DNA from: a virus
Taxonomy: Duplodnaviria; Caudoviricetes
Virus record (IMG/VR): IMGVR_UViG_3300014204_000112
Span: 128,001-192,000 of that record
Reading direction: 5' to 3' (one strand)
Length of the DNA: 64,000 nt
A program made the position numbers and the translations under genes. This document shows positions 6,334 through 55,744 of this stretch, piece by piece (positions within the stretch are counted from its first letter, which is position 1; each line of letters starts with the position of its first letter). Under the pieces are notes generated by a model. It saw only the letters and a program-made list of their open reading frames with translations, was not told the DNA's origin and made no database searches.

Positions 6334-6513
6334 CCGGCTAACTTTTTCTTCTTATACTATGGACAGAAACAAAAGTTAGTCGGCTGATCAAATTTACCGG
6401 ATGATTATGCAATGTTGGTTGCCGAAAGAGTTACTGCAACTGGAACAGCTGTGTAAGTAGGAGTGGTGAAAGTGTAAGGTCAGCCACCGAACCTGGGTGA
6501 TAAAAAAAATTTG

Positions 6514-6586
6514 AGAGTCCTGTGGGGCTCGAACCCACGACCACGGTTTTAGAGACCGCTGCTCTAACCACTAAAGCTAAGGACTC
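6514..6586 (-). tRNA. amber-suppressor tRNA (anticodon CUA)
   Basis: Cloverleaf GAGTCCT...AGGACTC; anticodon arm GCGGT ctCTAaa ACCGT; T loop TTCGAG. Confidence 0.88.
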
Positions 6587-13380: not shown

Positions 13381-15009
13381 TTAGATTACGATCTTACGTA
13401 CCTTGTCCAGGTGGTATGTAGGATTGAATTCGACGTTGGCGATGTCGTCGAACATCGAGAAGCCGTAACCGTAGTAGAAACGGACCTTGTCACCGATCAG
13501 CTGAGTTGTGCCGTAGGATGCCAAGTCTACAGAGTAGACGTATGGGTTTCCGACGTTCCTCAGGTAGTTCGTGTACGAAGAGTACGTGTTTCCACGGTTG
13601 CATTCGTTGTCAGAGAGGATGAACACCCTGTCGTACGCCTTTCCGGAACGTGCTGCCAGATCCCAAGCGGTGCTTAGGTTGGTTCCACCAAGGTTAGCAT
13701 TGAACGACCTTGCGATCGAGAATACGTCCTGGTTTGCGTTCCATGGGGTGAAGTGAGCGCTCGATCCGAACTGAATAACGTCAGCATTGGTTGCCTTCGC
13801 GATTGTTGCTCCGATCAAGGATGCCTTGTCAGCACATGACGTTGAGTACTGAGTCTTCCTGTTAGGGTCGACCATCTTCGTGGTCATGGATCCGGACCTG
13901 TCGATGATAACGAGGTTCCTTCCTGGCAATGCTTCCGCAAGGTTTGGAACGGATGCTTCGTAACCGATCAACAGTGCCTGTGCGATCTTCCTTCCGTCCA
14001 TCTTCGAGCCGAATTCTGCGAGCAGAATTTCGCCGGCCATGTCGATCTGGTAAGGCATGATCTTTGCCTGCCTGATAAGGTTTGGGTCCGACAGAACTGC
14101 GCACAGCTTGTCAATCGTTGCACGATCGGAGACCGTGTTCAGAATGCTCCTGATGTTACGCAGAGCTGCAAGAGTACCGAGCTTACCTTCGGTCAACAGA
14201 GCTCCCCAGTTTTCAGCCTTAGCTTCCTTGAGGATTTCTGCACCTTCAGCCTTGGTGATCTTACCTGCCTTTACGGCCTTTGCAACTTCCTGACCTGCGT
14301 CAGAGTTAGCAACTTCCCAGGTGTCGGCGGATACAGCCAAGCCCTTGATAACGGCATCGATTGCAGATACCCTTTCGCCCTTGAATTCAACGAATGCCCT
14401 CGACTGCTTTGGGTCAGGGTGAACGAGGTTGATAACGTCGATCAATGCTGACTTGTACTTCAGGATCGAGTATGCGTCGAGCCTTTCGATTGCATCAGCA
14501 AAACCCTTCTTCATAGAGTTGGTTGCCTTCGTCTTGTTCATAACCGAGAAACAGGCGATGATTTCGGCCATGTCGTCCGGACGGAAAATGGTTCCACCAG
14601 ACTGGTTCTTCTTGTTCCACAGTGAGTAGAACCTCTTCGCCCATTCGAGACCAGCGCAGTAAGGAGCGAGGTAGCTTGCTGCGAGGTGGTTGATCGACCT
14701 CATACCTTCACCAACGCAACGTGAGTACACGATGCACTGTGCGGTTAGGTAAGGATCTTCCTTTGCACAGGCAGTAACGATTCCCTTGAGTTCCCTCATG
14801 GTTTCATTTTCTGACCTGTAGAACTGGTTTTCCAGCTTCAAGGTGTTGAGCATTGTGATCAGTCTCAACCACTTGTCGATCGCATAAGCCGCGTGGCCCG
14901 AACGATTGACAGTGTTAGGCGTAGGAACTGCGTTAGCAGCTACTAACTTCGCCTTAGGTGCCGTCTTGGCAAGCTTAGTACGAAGATTTGCGTTTCTGAA
15001 CTTTGTCAT
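13381..15009 (-). CDS. TROVE/Ro60 (Rsr-like) RNA-binding protein with C-terminal vWA domain
   Basis: N-terminal NRSG..AY and FY motifs, ALRNI, IIDRSGSM MIDAS, GGTN, ILSDNE, VDLASYGT. Confidence 0.9.
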   Translation of the reverse strand: MTKFRNANLRTKLAKTAPKAKLVAANAVPTPNTVNRSGHAAYAIDKWLRLITMLNTLKLENQFYRSENETMRELKGIVTACAKEDPYLTAQCIVYSRCVGEGMRSINHLAASYLAPYCAGLEWAKRFYSLWNKKNQSGGTIFRPDDMAEIIACFSVMNKTKATNSMKKGFADAIERLDAYSILKYKSALIDVINLVHPDPKQSRAFVEFKGERVSAIDAVIKGLAVSADTWEVANSDAGQEVAKAVKAGKITKAEGAEILKEAKAENWGALLTEGKLGTLAALRNIRSILNTVSDRATIDKLCAVLSDPNLIRQAKIMPYQIDMAGEILLAEFGSKMDGRKIAQALLIGYEASVPNLAEALPGRNLVIIDRSGSMTTKMVDPNRKTQYSTSCADKASLIGATIAKATNADVIQFGSSAHFTPWNANQDVFSIARSFNANLGGTNLSTAWDLAARSGKAYDRVFILSDNECNRGNTYSSYTNYLRNVGNPYVYSVDLASYGTTQLIGDKVRFYYGYGFSMFDDIANVEFNPTYHLDKVRKIVI

Positions 15010-19952: not shown

Positions 19953-19957
19953 ATGTG

Positions 19958-20028
19958 AGCGGATGACCAGAATTGAACTGGCGTCCGAAGCTTGGCAAGC
20001 TCCTACATTACCACTATGCTACACCCGC
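19958..20028 (-). tRNA. tRNA-Gly (GCC)
   Basis: ttGCCaa. Confidence 0.9.
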
Positions 20029-20645
20029 GATTTGATAAATTTTGTTAGAACGTCATCAAACTCTTTGCCGTCTGACCATGGTATTCTAATTACTGTAATT
20101 CCAATGGATTTTAGATAAGCGTCTCTATTTTTATCTTTCTCTTGTATTTTAGAAAATCGATGCGTTCCACCGTCTATTTCCAAATCGATTTTATCTTTTT
20201 CGAAATAAAAATCAAGAAAATACATTGTCTTTTTGCCGGTAACAGTAATTGGATATTCTTTAACAAAGTCTATGCAATTAGCGTCTTTCAATTTTCTTTC
20301 AGTATATTCTTCTGGATAACTTTGAAGATTTTTTCGAGTTTTCCAAGTTGCGTGAATTCCGTTATCAAACGCTTTTTTTGCAGATTCGCTCATTTTTAAT
20401 TTAGCTTCTTCTGTGTGAGTTTTACCTTTCATCCATGGAGAACGGCCGCTCATTAACTTTGAGGAACGCTGTAAGCTATCGTTAGTGTCCTTTGATAAAC
20501 CTTTATTCCATACAACTCTTCCATTTTTGTAACCTCGGTTTGGATCATGCGATTTACCATCTCCGTGATTTTTCCAAATATGCGTTCCTAACCCGTATCT
20601 AGAATAAGCTTTACCACAATATGGACAATTTTCGGTTTTAAGCAT
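20019..20645 (-). CDS. Vsr/DUF559-like endonuclease with NUMOD3 motif
   Basis: YFLDFY, LEIDGGTH, DKNRD, VIRIPW. Confidence 0.8.
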   Translation of the reverse strand: MLKTENCPYCGKAYSRYGLGTHIWKNHGDGKSHDPNRGYKNGRVVWNKGLSKDTNDSLQRSSKLMSGRSPWMKGKTHTEEAKLKMSESAKKAFDNGIHATWKTRKNLQSYPEEYTERKLKDANCIDFVKEYPITVTGKKTMYFLDFYFEKDKIDLEIDGGTHRFSKIQEKDKNRDAYLKSIGITVIRIPWSDGKEFDDVLTKFIKSRV

Positions 20646-20689
20646 GGCGTTTTATTTTATTTATACAACGCCATGCTCTACCAGTTTAG

Positions 20690-20880
20690 TTAATCGTTTC
20701 GTAATTGGACTTCTGTTTCTCATCTAACATTTATCTTAGCCTCAACCCGACTATCATTGAATTGCTGACCTTCTAAGTCTGTTTGAGTTGCACCAATGTC
20801 GTATAACGTCTTTCGACTTCAACAACCAGCAAAGGTGGCACCAATTTCCTCAGTTTCCCGCGTTAGATACTTTCGCCTAA
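20690..20880 (-). ncRNA. candidate miniature RNase P RNA
   Basis: GAGGAAATTGG (CR-I-like) pairs with GTCCAATT in ACAGAAGTCCAATTAC (CR-V-like); AGATAAATG (CR-IV-like); P2 ATCTAAC/GTTAGAT. Confidence 0.6.
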
Positions 20881-20885
20881 TGTTC

Positions 20886-20961
20886 TGGAGCTAAAGTCGA
20901 GATTCGAACTCGAGACCTTCTCAATACCAATGAGATGCTCTACCTACTGAGCTACTTCAGC
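20886..20961 (-). tRNA. tRNA-Thr (GGT)
   Basis: ttGGTat, CCA. Confidence 0.9.
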
Positions 20962-20967
20962 GTTGTG

Positions 20968-21049
20968 TACCCATAGTCGGAATCGAACCGACACTCCTTT
21001 CGAAACTGCGTTTTAAGTGCAGCGCGTCTACCTGTTCCGCCATCGGGGC
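20968..21049 (-). tRNA. tRNA-Leu (TAA)
   Basis: ctTAAaa, long variable arm. Confidence 0.9.
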
Positions 21050-21238: not shown

Positions 21239-21313
21239 TAGCGATGATCGGAATTGAACCGATGACCTTTGGGTTATGAAACCAACGCTCTTGACCGACT
21301 GAGCTACATCGCC
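21239..21313 (-). tRNA. tRNA-Met (CAT), elongator type
   Basis: ttCATaa, paired 1:72. Confidence 0.85.
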
Positions 21314-21963
21314 ATTAAATCAATTACCGTAAACTCATCATTTGAAATTCTTTTAATTTCTGAGTATTTAAGAATTTTCAAATTTTTAACAGCTTTCCAT
21401 TTTGCTAAATCTCTATCCGATTCTCTTGAATATCCTTTTATCTCAATGTATACATCGTATTCTGGTAAGTAAAAATCCGGAAAATACGTTCTATTTCCAT
21501 TCCACTCATACGAAAAACCAGTTACATTATTTGTCCATTTGATAGATACTAAATCTAACCATTTGGCAAAGAGTAGTTCCCAAGATCCTTTAAATTTAGT
21601 TCCGTTATAGTCGTAAATCTTACATCTACCTGAAACACTAGATGCTGAATATCTTTCAGGATGTCTTAATATTGCAGCCTTTATTTTATTGGACTGCTCT
21701 TTACGAGCATCGGGATTTTTCCATTTAATTAGATTTCGTTCTCGAGTTTTATTTCCTATTCGTTTTCTTCCTTCTAATTCTTTAGCGGATGGAACGTATT
21801 CAATATTTAATTTTTTAGCTTTTGTGTATTGATTATTGCGACCAATTTTACCAAATGATGGATGATCTTCTTTTTTCTTATTTGGATTTTTGATACATAA
21901 TCTTTCGTGCGAAAACCATCCCAATTGTTTGCATAATTTTCCGCAATACTGGCATTCATGCAT
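21304..21963 (-). CDS. PD-(D/E)xK endonuclease
   Basis: GSWE, YFPDFYL, YIEIKG. Confidence 0.8.
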   Translation of the reverse strand: MHECQYCGKLCKQLGWFSHERLCIKNPNKKKEDHPSFGKIGRNNQYTKAKKLNIEYVPSAKELEGRKRIGNKTRERNLIKWKNPDARKEQSNKIKAAILRHPERYSASSVSGRCKIYDYNGTKFKGSWELLFAKWLDLVSIKWTNNVTGFSYEWNGNRTYFPDFYLPEYDVYIEIKGYSRESDRDLAKWKAVKNLKILKYSEIKRISNDEFTVIDLMAM

Positions 21964-28925: not shown

Positions 28926-29373
28926 ATTTCTTATTTACAATGTTTTTTGCTCCGAACGTATGTGTTTGTGAATGACAGTTTGGACACAAAATTCTCAGAT
29001 TTTGAAGTCTGTGATTTCGGTTATTTCCGTCAATATGATCGACTTGTAATGATAAAGGTAGACCGTTCCATTCTGCTGGAGTTCCGCATTCTTCACATCG
29101 ATCCTCTTTATAACCTTCCAGTATCAATCGTCTTTTTAATTTCGATGTCGGATATTCTGGGTGTTTTCCTTCAAGAATGTCTAGCAATTTGAATGCTACT
29201 CCTCCGGTTCTTTTCATTTTTCGTAACTTGACTTCAATTTGTATTCCTAACAAATTGCAATATTTGGTTAGGGTTACTCTACTGATTCCAGTTACTTCTG
29301 AAAGTTCCAAAACAGAGCTAACGTTCTTGGCATTTTCATTGATTTTGTCTACGATTTCTTGGTTTAGCCGCAT
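28906..29373 (-). CDS. HNH endonuclease
   Basis: CEECG, LQVDHIDGN..NHRLQNLRILCPNCH; start moved to MRLNQ. Confidence 0.9.
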   Translation of the reverse strand: MRLNQEIVDKINENAKNVSSVLELSEVTGISRVTLTKYCNLLGIQIEVKLRKMKRTGGVAFKLLDILEGKHPEYPTSKLKRRLILEGYKEDRCEECGTPAEWNGLPLSLQVDHIDGNNRNHRLQNLRILCPNCHSQTHTFGAKNIVNKKSSIVRS

Positions 29374-34219: not shown

Positions 34220-34441
34220 TTATTCGTGTTCGTACTTCGGGCATTCCCATACAGGAAGCGTCATGTTATTATCCACGCAGAACTAGTAATTAGCCTGAGC
34301 GAGTGGACAATTTTCTGGAGTATTCGGTTTGAAGAACTTGCACTCAAGGTGGCACAGGCAATGTTCCCTGTGCCGACCCTTGAGGTGTTCCTGGACGTTT
34401 ACCACAGTTCCGTGGTGTTCGTACTGGATTACTGTTGCCAT
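34220..34441 (-). CDS. Cys/His-rich small protein with an in-frame TAG at codon 53
   Basis: MATVIQYEHHG...HREHCLCHLEC...NCPLAQANY*FCVDNNMTLPVWECPKYEHE; TAATG-coupled to the NAMPT-like gene. Confidence 0.6.
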
Positions 34442-36024
34442 TATTTCTGGTATTTTTCTTTCTTAAGGTGTTCCTCAATCGTTGCTCTGATTGCGGCTAA
34501 CGTTGTCCTGCGAACGATGACTCCATCGACGAATACTGGCTGCAACATTCCTGTCGCTTCTTCTTCCCAGGTAACTCCGTCGGTGTAGGTCATGTCTTTG
34601 TTCACTCTGACGAGACCGCGAGCTGATTTCTTCATTCCGCTGTCGGTGATGGGATCCTTAAAGATTTCCTTCTGGCGACCATCTACAGTTTCGGCGAATG
34701 TAGCTTTCATCGCCATCATGTAAGTGTCCCTAGTGACGTACTGGTAGGTGTAGGAACCGATTCCGAGGACCAGATTGGAAGCACAGAATCCCTTTTCTTC
34801 GAGCCGTGCAAGAATGTCCCTCTGTCTCTGCATCGTAATGGAATCGCCGTAGATCAGGCCGATGTGAGTGTCAAGCTGTTTGTAACCTTTTTCTGTCGTA
34901 GGACCAGGAAACATGGTGTACAGGTATTCGTAAGCTCCGAGGAATTCAGCATCAGTCATTTCCTCAGCAATCTTATCGTCTGATTTGAAGAAGTACTTCG
35001 GCTGGTCTTCGCTGTAGTCAATCACGATTTCGTTGACCCTGTAGCCAGAAACGATGTGAACTGGTTCTCCTGAGTCGGGACGAATTACGAGACGACCGTT
35101 ACGGGCGAGGATTTCTGTTTTGAGGCCGGGGATCAGGACCTTCAGAACTTTCCAGAAGTTCCAGGTGTCGGAAACCACGGAGATCGGGCCATCCGGATAG
35201 ATCTTCGTGATCAGCCGTTTGAAAGTATTGTAGTCCGAGTCAACACATTCGTCGCGGGTAAGACCCTCTGATGCGACCATGTGGATCATGTGCTCGGTTG
35301 CCGGGATGCTACCGCCAATGAGTTCAGTATTGCTATCAGCCCCGTAGTAATCTTCGAGGAAGTCGATTGCAAGAATGGTGTCGGTGCCGGTGAAACTTAG
35401 AAGGTGTGCTGCTCCGGAAAGAGCTGCATCTTCTGGGCCTGACATTCCACGGAACGAAAAGTCGTGTCCCTGCCATTTCACGAAGTCCATCGGACCGTCA
35501 GTGAGACGCATGTGGCGTTCGAATTCTTTCCTGTAATGGAACGCGGTCGTTGCACTGGTGCAAGGTTTCCACAGAACGCAGCTGAGCAGCGATTCCAGGT
35601 AATTGGTCAACCATGCGAAACGTTTGTCACCGTGCTTGGTGTTGCGAATGGTGAGCATTGGGGTACGCATTGGAACGAGAGTTCCTTCAGGTACGGCCTT
35701 AATCACAAGCGGCAAGTAGCCAAGATCATGGAGAGCTTCAATGTGAGCTACTGGAACCGTTCCAGGTCCGAGTGAGCTATCCATTCTTCTCTGGTACTTA
35801 CGTACGACCTTCGCCTTCGGTTTGAAGAAGAATTCGTCGTTCCAGTTACGGACAAGAAATTCCTGAAGGAAGTACTGGAGGCCGAAGAACACGATCTCAT
35901 CAGCCCATGGAACCCTGGTTCCGCGAGGAGTGAATGTCGAATAAATGACGACCGTGTCTTCCGGTATCATCATTGGGTGTCCGACTTTGTAGAAGTCGGC
36001 CGCGTGCAATGGGAAAATTTTCAT
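34441..36024 (-). CDS. nicotinamide phosphoribosyltransferase-like protein (Namat/NadV family)
   Basis: DFYKVGH, HDFSFRG, PATEH, SVVSDT, IRPDSG, IYGDSIT, KKSARG. Confidence 0.9.
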   Translation of the reverse strand: MKIFPLHAADFYKVGHPMMIPEDTVVIYSTFTPRGTRVPWADEIVFFGLQYFLQEFLVRNWNDEFFFKPKAKVVRKYQRRMDSSLGPGTVPVAHIEALHDLGYLPLVIKAVPEGTLVPMRTPMLTIRNTKHGDKRFAWLTNYLESLLSCVLWKPCTSATTAFHYRKEFERHMRLTDGPMDFVKWQGHDFSFRGMSGPEDAALSGAAHLLSFTGTDTILAIDFLEDYYGADSNTELIGGSIPATEHMIHMVASEGLTRDECVDSDYNTFKRLITKIYPDGPISVVSDTWNFWKVLKVLIPGLKTEILARNGRLVIRPDSGEPVHIVSGYRVNEIVIDYSEDQPKYFFKSDDKIAEEMTDAEFLGAYEYLYTMFPGPTTEKGYKQLDTHIGLIYGDSITMQRQRDILARLEEKGFCASNLVLGIGSYTYQYVTRDTYMMAMKATFAETVDGRQKEIFKDPITDSGMKKSARGLVRVNKDMTYTDGVTWEEEATGMLQPVFVDGVIVRRTTLAAIRATIEEHLKKEKYQK

Positions 36025-54472: not shown

Positions 54473-55744
54473 TTACCGAGCCAATGAATTACTGACTGTA
54501 TCATTCGTGTATTGTGGTTTCAATGTCTGTTTCAATTTGATGAGATCTTCCTTGTACATGTCAAGCGGAAGCCTCTTCTTTATTTTGTTCAGTTCCACTT
54601 TCTTTTCTTCGACTTCCTTTAGCAACTGTTCATATATTTCTTTCGTCAACGAATGGATTGGCATTCCAAGCAAGTAATTGTAAGAACCGTCAACTTCATC
54701 GAAGTTTGCTGTCTCTAAGTAAAGGACAATTGCCTGTTTAGGCGCGTTATTGATCTTCAACTTGCCAATAATGATTTCCTTAACGAACCTTGCTCTGTTA
54801 GAAAGAAAGCTGAGCTCTCTCTCGTACTTATCGATCAAGTATGCCTTGCGCTTGTCATAGAACTTGAGGCGGAAGTTCACGAAGTATTCCACGACTTCTG
54901 GCAAAGTACTGAACTCGATTAACTTTCCGTTCTCGTCCAAGCACGTCAAGTTCTCAGTTTCGGTCTCAATCATCTTGAGAGTTTGATCAAGCTTTCCTTT
55001 AGCTACGAGTTTAGCCAAGTTCGCTCTGTTGAACTTCAGGATGTAATTGATTCCGCTGGAAGAGTTGTCCTCATAGTTGTAGATGATGCCTCTCTCAAGC
55101 AACGAGTTGAGATGTGCTTCGTACTTTTGAAACGTTATGGACGGCGGAAGTTCAGAAACTTCGACTGTAGTGGTGTTCACTACGCGATACCTACCGCGCA
55201 TGATGTACTGGTTCGTGTCGTCGACTTGCTCGACTGGCCCATTGTAAGCGCTCCACCATGGAAGCAATTTTCCAACTTTCTTTCCTTCGAGAACTCTCTG
55301 GCATGCGTCAATGAGATCGATAGGATTACGGTTTAATATGTTAGTAGCAAAGCCGACAGCGATTCCAGAGCTTCCATTCAACAGGACAGTTGGAATGATT
55401 GGTAGGAAGTACTTCGGTTCGATCTCACACCCCTCTTCTATTCTACTCTCTAAGAGGTCGAAATCCTTGTACAGCAATCTGAAATTTTTGGTCGTCTTTG
55501 TAGAAATGTAGCGAGCCGCTCCGGCTTCAGGAGAACGAAGGGATCCGAATTGGCCGATCTCTTCTAGTAACGGAAGAGAATTATTGAAAGATTGCGCCAT
55601 CCCAATGATTGCTCCGTTCAAACTAGAATTGTGAGTAACTAAATTATCTCTAGTTACTATAAAATTATGAAATTCGTCAACTGTGATATCATAGAATTTC
55701 TTAGGTTCAGTTAGCGTACGTATATTAATTGACTTTACTTTCAT
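54473..55744 (-). CDS. C-intein (39 aa) plus C-terminal part of the type II topoisomerase GyrA/gp52-like subunit
   Basis: FYDITV..FHNF...THN|S; AARYI catalytic Tyr, EPKYFLPIIP, GIAVGF. Confidence 0.92.
   Translation of the reverse strand: MKVKSINIRTLTEPKKFYDITVDEFHNFIVTRDNLVTHNSSLNGAIIGMAQSFNNSLPLLEEIGQFGSLRSPEAGAARYISTKTTKNFRLLYKDFDLLESRIEEGCEIEPKYFLPIIPTVLLNGSSGIAVGFATNILNRNPIDLIDACQRVLEGKKVGKLLPWWSAYNGPVEQVDDTNQYIMRGRYRVVNTTTVEVSELPPSITFQKYEAHLNSLLERGIIYNYEDNSSSGINYILKFNRANLAKLVAKGKLDQTLKMIETETENLTCLDENGKLIEFSTLPEVVEYFVNFRLKFYDKRKAYLIDKYERELSFLSNRARFVKEIIIGKLKINNAPKQAIVLYLETANFDEVDGSYNYLLGMPIHSLTKEIYEQLLKEVEEKKVELNKIKKRLPLDMYKEDLIKLKQTLKPQYTNDTVSNSLAR

Follow-up and report, generated by a model that had tools for sequence, protein, structure and literature searches.

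A putative RNase P RNA without a specificity domain in the tRNA array of a large phage

Background

Is an RNA encoded inside the tRNA array of a large phage an RNase P RNA, and if it is, what would it do during infection? As far as could be found, RNase P RNA has been described only from cells and organelles. Full-text literature searches for a phage or viral RNase P RNA found none described, and neither the 2024 review PMC11143913 nor the 2016 review PMC4919922 mentions a viral one. The huge-phage paper PMC7162821 does not mention RNase P at all, and in the megaphage paper PMC8172020, where Rfam yields only tRNAs and one tmRNA, there is no viral RNase P RNA. The locus examined here lies in a stretch of 64,000 nt, referred to below as the window, which was taken from a 213,922-bp IMG/VR virus record with an estimated completeness of 83%. 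The source phage carries a T4-type major capsid gene, and its nearest named relatives by capsid are huge phages of the Mahaphage clade, the hosts of which are Bacteroidetes (PMC7162821), together with phages of Bacteroidota.

The RNA locus and its setting in the tRNA array

All 41 tRNA genes of the window lie on its minus strand. A 193-nt RNA is encoded at 20881-20689 on this strand, running from the 5' strand to the 3' strand of helix P1, and its RNase P elements follow in the canonical order P1, P2, P3, CR-I, P4, P5, J5/15 GCAA, P15 with L15 GGU, CR-IV and CR-V. The strands of P2 and P4 interleave, which is the P2/P4 pseudoknot of RNase P. A search with R1, a covariance model built from the close group of homologues (group 1), indicated that the RNA is single-copy in the source genome.

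On its 5' side, tRNA-Thr(GGU) with an encoded CCA (20886..20961, minus strand) ends 4 nt before the RNA, and the same neighbour is found in the relatives L050, L060 and L092. The original 3' neighbour is tRNA-Gly(GCC) (19957..20028, minus strand), which starts 3-4 nt after P1 in L060, L092 and L292; in these three relatives the RNA is flanked within 1-4 nt by tRNA-Thr and tRNA-Gly. A homing-endonuclease-like ORF with NUMOD3 and DUF559 matches (20019..20645, minus strand) lies between the RNA and tRNA-Gly, outside the RNA; it is an insertion shared by the window and L050, and is absent from this position in L060, L092 and L292.

Homing-endonuclease-like ORFs are scattered across the minus strand of the tRNA array (20019-20645 and 21304-21963). 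The second of these, 21304-21963 (minus strand), has no Pfam match but carries an N-terminal CxxC motif similar to that of the 20019-20645 ORF. The ATG of the latter sits in the 3' arm of a strong hairpin at 20646-20680 (GCATGGCGTT...AACGCCATGC), which could gate translation of the ORF. The tRNA genes themselves show a further regularity, in that the discriminator base is followed by C in 37/37 full-length tRNAs (window 6514-31138), with the full CCA encoded in 10 of the 37 and a CAC continuation in about a dozen more. This points to phage tRNAs with a fixed C74, the remainder being added or repaired post-transcriptionally. One tRNA at 6513-6586 (minus strand), called tRNA-Pyl by ARAGORN, has the anticodon CUA and is of the amber-suppressor type; it may serve TAG reassignment or read-through late in infection. 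Elsewhere in the window, a 542-aa protein encoded at 13381-15009 (minus strand) gives weak matches to TROVE, Ro60-vWA and VWA_2, and a single weak YrlA match (20937-20993) overlaps tRNAs. A topoisomerase IV/gyrase A-type gene with a weak N-terminal intein-splicing match (54473-55744, minus strand) and a NAMPT/NAPRTase gene (34441-36024, minus strand) are auxiliary genes typical of large T4-like phages.

Helices and conserved regions

A sequence-only reading of this DNA had listed a set of RNase P-like motifs within the tRNA array, and every one of them was recovered on the minus strand in the order given there, including GAGGAAATTGG (20851-20841), GGTGCAACTC (20794-20785) and AGATAAATG (20736-20728). 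All elements described in this section are likewise on the minus strand. Not in that list was the closing stem P1, in which the 5' strand UUAGGCG (20874..20880) pairs with the 3' strand CGAUUAA (20690..20696) at 6/7 positions with one G.A mismatch. In L050, L060, L092 and L292, P1 is a perfect helix of 8 bp (GUUAAUCG/CGAUUAAC), and in L001 and L316 it is a different helix of 10 bp. P2 is formed by AUCUAAC (20862..20868) and GUUAGAU (20722..20728), and is followed by a P3 mini-hairpin, CGG-GAAA-CUG (20851..20860), which is longer in the huge-phage homologues.

The conserved regions of the catalytic core, CR-I GAGGAAA, CR-IV AGAUAAAUG and CR-V ACAGAA, occur in the right order and are conserved in the 15 homologues described below. 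The CR-I/J3-4 segment (20845..20851) aligns to the GAGGAAA of the Rfam model RF00373, and its GAGRAA is kept in 15/15 homologues. CR-IV (20728..20736) and CR-V/J2-4 (20711..20716) align to the CR-IV and the ACAGAAG of the same model, the latter element being conserved throughout the family. In P5, the 5' strand CACC (20834..20837) pairs with GGUG (20791-20794), and the homologues carry the covarying versions CACAU/AUGUG, CUAC/GUAG, CUCC/GGAG and CAAC/GUUG. The P5 3' strand continues into the CAA of J5/15 (together 20788..20794) so as to form the GCAA motif kept in the family; the resulting GGUGCAA corresponds to GgaGCAA in the Rfam consensus for bacterial type A and to GGUGAAA in a Flavobacteriaceae rnpB.

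Only 39 nt (20833-20795) separate the P5 strands of the window RNA, and it is missing CR-II, CR-III and P7-P14, the parts of the specificity domain, by which bacterial type A RNase P RNA reads the elbow of the tRNA. The catalytic-domain-only architecture proposed from the sequence alone is thus borne out, with these parts replaced by a stub of about 40 nt. According to RNAalifold and pair counts, the stub (39 nt, 20795..20833) consists of a helix GUUG/CGAC, a conserved GG-A-G...C-G-UU module and a GUC-GAAA-GAC hairpin, and folds as one short stem plus a hairpin; within group 1, three of its pairs change on both sides by the same two methods. The GGAG...CGUU module recurs in L001, L316, L317, L318, L324 and DLP6, which are otherwise very different members of the family. 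As written in full, 5'-GG-A-G[hairpin]C-G-UU-3', the module has tandem G.U pairs; it may serve in a tertiary contact or in binding a protein.

On the other side of J5/15, the P15-P16 arm (20741..20787) comprises P15 CUCAA/UUGAG, an internal loop ACA/GGG, P16 GACU/AGUC and, at the apex, a hairpin whose loop is GGUCAGCAA, and its helices (helices 8-10 of the ten-sequence test) covary. The sequence at P15 reads AGUC-GGG-UUGAG, so that the L15 GGU motif (20746-20744) straddles the boundary between the loop (its last G) and the P15 3' strand (its first U); all homologues keep a GG(G)U immediately upstream of the P15 3' strand. P18 and P6/P17 are missing from the window RNA, in which the P15 3' strand runs directly into CR-IV; P18-like hairpins are present in L318, L329, L330, L332 and DLP6.

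Support from Rfam and covariance models

At gathering thresholds, Rfam annotates only tRNAs in the window region. Below threshold, RF00373 (RNaseP_arch) hits 20867-20710 with 29.3 bits, where its gathering score is 84; in a search of 1 kb with 4227 families the E-value is 2.1e-6. Its alignment takes in P2, P3, CR-I, P5, J5/15, P15, CR-IV and CR-V. The same model scores 31.8-37.7 bits over its full length on the close homologues, and 32.4 bits on LR756502. The models for bacterial type A (RF00010), bacterial type B (RF00011) and type T (RF02357) give no match at E<=1 for the window lineage (five records in the case of RF02357). The check by covariance models that had been suggested for this RNA was passed: the support from RF00373 is significant, with E 1.1e-7 over the 214-kb phage record, though far below every Rfam gathering threshold. 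The RNA is classed here as an RNase P RNA of viral origin that has no specificity domain and, by score, lies outside every curated Rfam family. R1 scores the window RNA at 239 bits. For the homologue in phage DLP6, RF00010 (bacterial type A) gives a match of 54.7 bits (E 3.3e-17), and R1 hits the same site at 22.4 bits.

A family of homologous RNAs in large phages

In total, 15 distinct homologues were verified, among them copies in the largest published phage genomes (LR756500/01/02 and LR745206) and in the cultured phage DLP6. BLAST and pattern scans identified four close relatives, L050, L060, L092 and L292 (group 1), always in the same tRNA array. A distant copy in the 462-kb phage LR756500 (L001, with the same sequence as L007 and L296) is recovered by R1 at 29.8 bits. 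Further copies that R1 finds score 48.2 bits in LR745206, 42.7 bits in LR756502 and 38.9 bits in LR756501, a phage of 735 kb. A search with the stub motif led to the IMG/VR contigs L324-L327, L329, L330, L331 and L332, at 26-83 bits. In Stenotrophomonas phage DLP6, an unannotated RNase P-like RNA of 249 nt (KU682439.2:105774-106022, L336:1501-1749) lies between a hypothetical CDS and tRNA-Arg(CCG), 3 nt before the tRNA. Most members of the family lie inside or adjoin tRNA arrays on the same strand, and the LR756501 copy stands alone with an intrinsic terminator of its own.

The RNA is conserved between phages with capsid proteins that are only 38.6% identical. It was not found with R1 or RF00373 in 40 capsid-related records, six of which are estimated to be 93-100% complete, and is therefore dispensable for relatives. 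Nor was it found, with the same two models and stricter filters, in Lak phages, LR756504, or phages of Tenacibaculum, Chryseobacterium and Flavobacterium, and the pattern applied to cellular species genomes gave no copy there. The metagenome and genome pattern scans contributed L292 as their single true member; L291, L294, L295, L297 and L298-L301 were set aside from these scans as chance or coding matches. With the pattern GGCTNAGATAAATG...CAGAAG, nearly all matches were chance ones in coding sequence, and a revised pattern recovered only members that were already known. Several weak R1 matches were also rejected as spurious: L060:3875-4102, which covers two tRNAs, window 29213-29263, L287 (coding), L319 in phage PAU, and L328 (a coding repeat).

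Covariation was assessed in alignment A7, made up of the ten members for which R1 gives a full-length alignment. In A7, 92.9% of cells are paired, compared with 27-42% in controls with the 3' strands shifted by 1-3 columns, 38/55 pairs change on both sides, and 0/500 shuffles reach any of five measures; A7 was fitted by a model of the same structure, which favours that structure, and the helices were also verified directly on raw sequences. Covarying pairs in this alignment make up 9/9 of P1, 7/7 of P2 and 2/3 of P3. When nine sequences were checked singly, all helix strands were complementary and in RNase P order, the sole flaw being the G.A in P1 of the window copy.

The P4 helix

The P4 5' strand of the window RNA, AAUUGG (20841..20846, minus strand), pairs with the 3' strand CCAAUU (20703..20708, minus strand) over 6 bp with no bulged U. 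The pairing AATTGG/CCAATT, named in the sequence-only reading, is indeed the local version of P4; what that reading missed is that the helix has 6 bp and is without the universal bulged U. Covariation of P4 among homologues had been set as a test beforehand, and it proved strong, with seven complementary versions of the helix in the family. With the bulged U in brackets, these are AAUUGG / CCAAUU in the group of the window and LR756500; ACU[U]CGAC / GUCGGGU in L316; AGU[U]CAAC / GUUGACU in L317; AGU[U]CGCG / CGCGGCU in L318, L329, L330 and DLP6, the DLP6 RNA having the same P4 version as LR756501; AAC[U]CCGA / UCGGGUU in L324-L327; AGC[U]CAGG / CCUGGCU in L331; and AGU[U]CGCC / GGCGGCU in L332. 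The bacterial form for comparison is AAG[U]CCGG / CCGGCUU, from Flavobacteriaceae rnpB.

The canonical 7 bp with a bulged U are kept in 6/7 of these versions, the bulged U being present in L316, L317, L318, L324, L329-L332 and DLP6, and 5/7 of the P4 pairs covary. In the window lineage and LR756500 (L001), the former bulge U has an extra A as its partner and P4 lacks its two distal pairs, which leaves a continuous helix of 6 bp. A bulged-U register for the P4 of the window lineage was considered and rejected, as it gives 5/7 pairs with two mismatches, against 6/6 for the continuous helix. The bulged U of P4 (U69 in the literature) contributes to the binding of catalytic metal.

The protein subunit RnpA

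The phages LR756502 and LR745206 each carry both the RNA and an rnpA gene, the product of which is an RnpA of about 100 aa. The gene in LR756502 (525189-525473, L320:1498-1803) matches PF00825 at 52 bits and TIGR00188 at 51.8 bits, and that in LR745206 (76444-76752, L321:1465-1812) matches them at 49 bits and 43.8 bits. Both proteins pass the TIGR00188 equivalog cut-off and have an intact RNR motif, AVDRNRVKRLMRE. It is hard to account for a virus with genes for both subunits if the RNA is anything other than RNase P RNA. At least 127 relatives of the phage RnpA, with 42-77% identity, were found in metagenomes, several on contigs of 268-617 kb, which suggests that phage RnpA proteins form a clade. 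Neither LR756500 nor LR756501 yielded an rnpA, and PF00825 gave no match in the source phage record, which is 83% complete. Conversely, two RnpA-bearing fragments, L322 and L323, which are 8% and 52% complete, have no detectable RNA.

Proposed function

The window RNA is probably a phage-borne, bacterial-type RNase P RNA that has been reduced to its catalytic domain and that would, together with RnpA of the host, cut the 5' leaders from phage pre-tRNAs. The pairing with host RnpA and the trimming of leaders are proposed because the bacterial C-domain is catalytically competent: in isolation, it cleaves pre-tRNA with or without RnpA, at lower rate and affinity (PMC4919922). Both the placement of the RNA and the presence of a phage RnpA in two relatives agree with a part in tRNA operon processing. 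The RNA would be transcribed as part of the tRNA operon transcript, with its 5' end set by 3' processing of tRNA-Thr and its ancestral 3' end by RNase P cleavage at tRNA-Gly; since tRNAs flank the RNA within 1-4 nt in L060, L092 and L292, ordinary tRNA end-processing should release it. Once released, it would fold into the active-site core of RNase P and bind an RnpA protein, presumably that of the host in the case of the source phage, in which no rnpA was found, and their own in the case of the two huge relatives that encode one. It might then strip the 5' leaders from the roughly 40 pre-tRNAs of the phage, holding the substrate through the acceptor stem, the pairing of L15 GGU with the 3' C74(CA) end and the protein, and not through the elbow of T-loop and D-loop. 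The contact with L15 may be partial, because the full CCA is encoded in only 10/37 tRNAs (C74 in 37/37). In this way, the infecting phage would have its own RNase P capacity. For the window lineage, this prediction of catalysis is weakened by the loss of the bulged U, the lack of a phage rnpA and the imperfect P1.

A descendant of RNase P RNA might instead have a different role, namely that of a non-catalytic decoy or sponge for host RnpA or for the 3' ends of pre-tRNAs, or of a chaperone or regulator of the tRNA operon; a decoy would re-direct or throttle host RNase P during infection. Consistent with this, the window lineage is without the bulged U and two distal pairs of P4 and has kept the regions that bind RnpA and CCA, the source phage is without rnpA, and the RNA is missing in close capsid relatives. 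Such a role is nevertheless considered unlikely, if to be taken seriously: the single strands of the active site, GAGRAA, AGAUAAAUG, ACAGAA and the GCAA of J5/15, are invariant across very distant phages, which would be needless for a mere protein decoy, the other six versions of P4 keep the canonical catalytic geometry, and the encoding of the partner protein by two of the phages argues for an enzyme and not an inhibitor. Less probable again, and in our view improbable, is an active ribozyme that does without RnpA, working alone or with a phage protein that replaces both RnpA and the specificity domain. The lack of a detected rnpA in the source genome, LR756500 and LR756501 would accord with it, as would the conserved GGAG...CGUU module of the stub and the precedent of archaeal type T RNase P, which uses a different, reduced set of proteins (PMC13462272); against it stand the match of the Rfam bacterial type A model to DLP6, the supply of RnpA by all bacterial hosts, and the finding of RnpA as the only RNase P protein in the relatives.

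The score below the gathering threshold, the absence of a specificity domain and the patchy distribution might also be read as signs of a host rnpB that was captured and is now decaying, or of an unrelated structured RNA that resembles RNase P by chance. This is very improbable given E-values of 1e-7 to 3e-17, 38 covarying pairs, conservation across phages with 38.6%-identical capsid proteins, and the presence of all RNase P core elements in the right order.

Implications

Going beyond the window, it is possible, and suggested here tentatively, that large phages infecting several host phyla carry an RNase P of their own, a ribozyme of about 155-250 nt without a specificity domain that is accompanied by RnpA in the biggest genomes; that P4, near-invariant in cells, drifts freely in these phages; and that the P4 of the window lineage, without its bulged U, is under purifying selection. 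If this is true, a ribozyme would join the translation-related functions carried by large phages, and 5' maturation would be explained in phages with 30-70 tRNA genes. The family would also be a natural experiment on minimal RNase P, with no S-domain, a variable P4 and, in the window lineage, no bulged U, and could furnish compact RNase P scaffolds for RNA engineering. Should the P4 variant of the window lineage be active, it would be an RNase P active site formed in nature without an element that is supposed to be essential; should it be inactive, it would be the first RNase P pseudo-ribozyme to come from nature, one that is turned against the host enzyme or works beside it. Because an unannotated member is present in the cultured phage DLP6, phage RNase P RNA is directly testable.

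Comparison with known RNase P RNAs

Among cellular RNAs, the phage RNA can be set beside bacterial type A rnpB (RF00010, E. coli M1 RNA), with which it shares the order P1-P2-P3-P4-P5 plus P15/P16, the P2/P4 pseudoknot, the CR-I GAGGAAA, the CR-V ACAGAA and the GCAA of J5/15. The reference copy was that of Flavobacteriaceae/Flagellimonas (L302:1501-1803, 303 nt, RF00010 197.8 bits), in which CR-IV AGAUAAAUG is identical letter for letter, P5 is likewise CACC/GGUG, an identical distance of 18 nt separates GAGG from the end of this helix, the J5/15 linker is A-rich, and GGGUA occupies the place of the GGGU on the 3' side of L15. In bacterial RNase P, the L15 GGU pairs with the 3' RCCA of the tRNA (PMC4919922). 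The bacterial partner protein, RnpA, is encoded by two of the phages that carry the RNA. Despite the identical CR-IV and P5 and the Bacteroidetes hosts of the Mahaphage clade, an origin from a Bacteroidota host rnpB is not claimed, as the family also occurs in a Stenotrophomonas phage. The phage RNA differs from bacterial type A rnpB in length (193 nt vs 303 nt) and in being without P7-P14, CR-II, CR-III, P18, P17 and P6; the sequence of P4 is free to vary in the phage family, with 6 bp and no bulged U in the window lineage; and it is encoded by a virus inside a tRNA array, the window lineage giving no RF00010 match at E<=1.

Reduced RNase P RNAs are known from other settings. The RPM1-type RNase P RNAs of yeast mitochondria are an extreme natural reduction to a core of P1, P4 and CR-I/CR-V, and differ from the phage RNA in being organellar and more reduced, without P15/L15 and with different protein partners. 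The type T RNA of Pyrobaculum and other Thermoproteaceae (RF02357; PMC3579882; Lai et al. 2010, cited in PMC4919922) is a natural RNA of about 200 nt that has likewise kept the catalytic domain and mostly lost the specificity domain, and it acts in the way proposed for the phage RNA. Unlike the phage RNA, type T is archaeal and cellular and is partnered by Pop5, Rpp30 and L7Ae, and RF02357 gives no match at E<=1 in the five records searched; the reduction is independent and the resemblance is one of architecture only. The engineered C-domain constructs of B. subtilis and E. coli (PMC4919922, refs 75-77 therein) retain the same parts as the phage RNA, which, in contrast to these laboratory constructs, occurs naturally under selection, with a conserved stub of its own where the S-domain would be.
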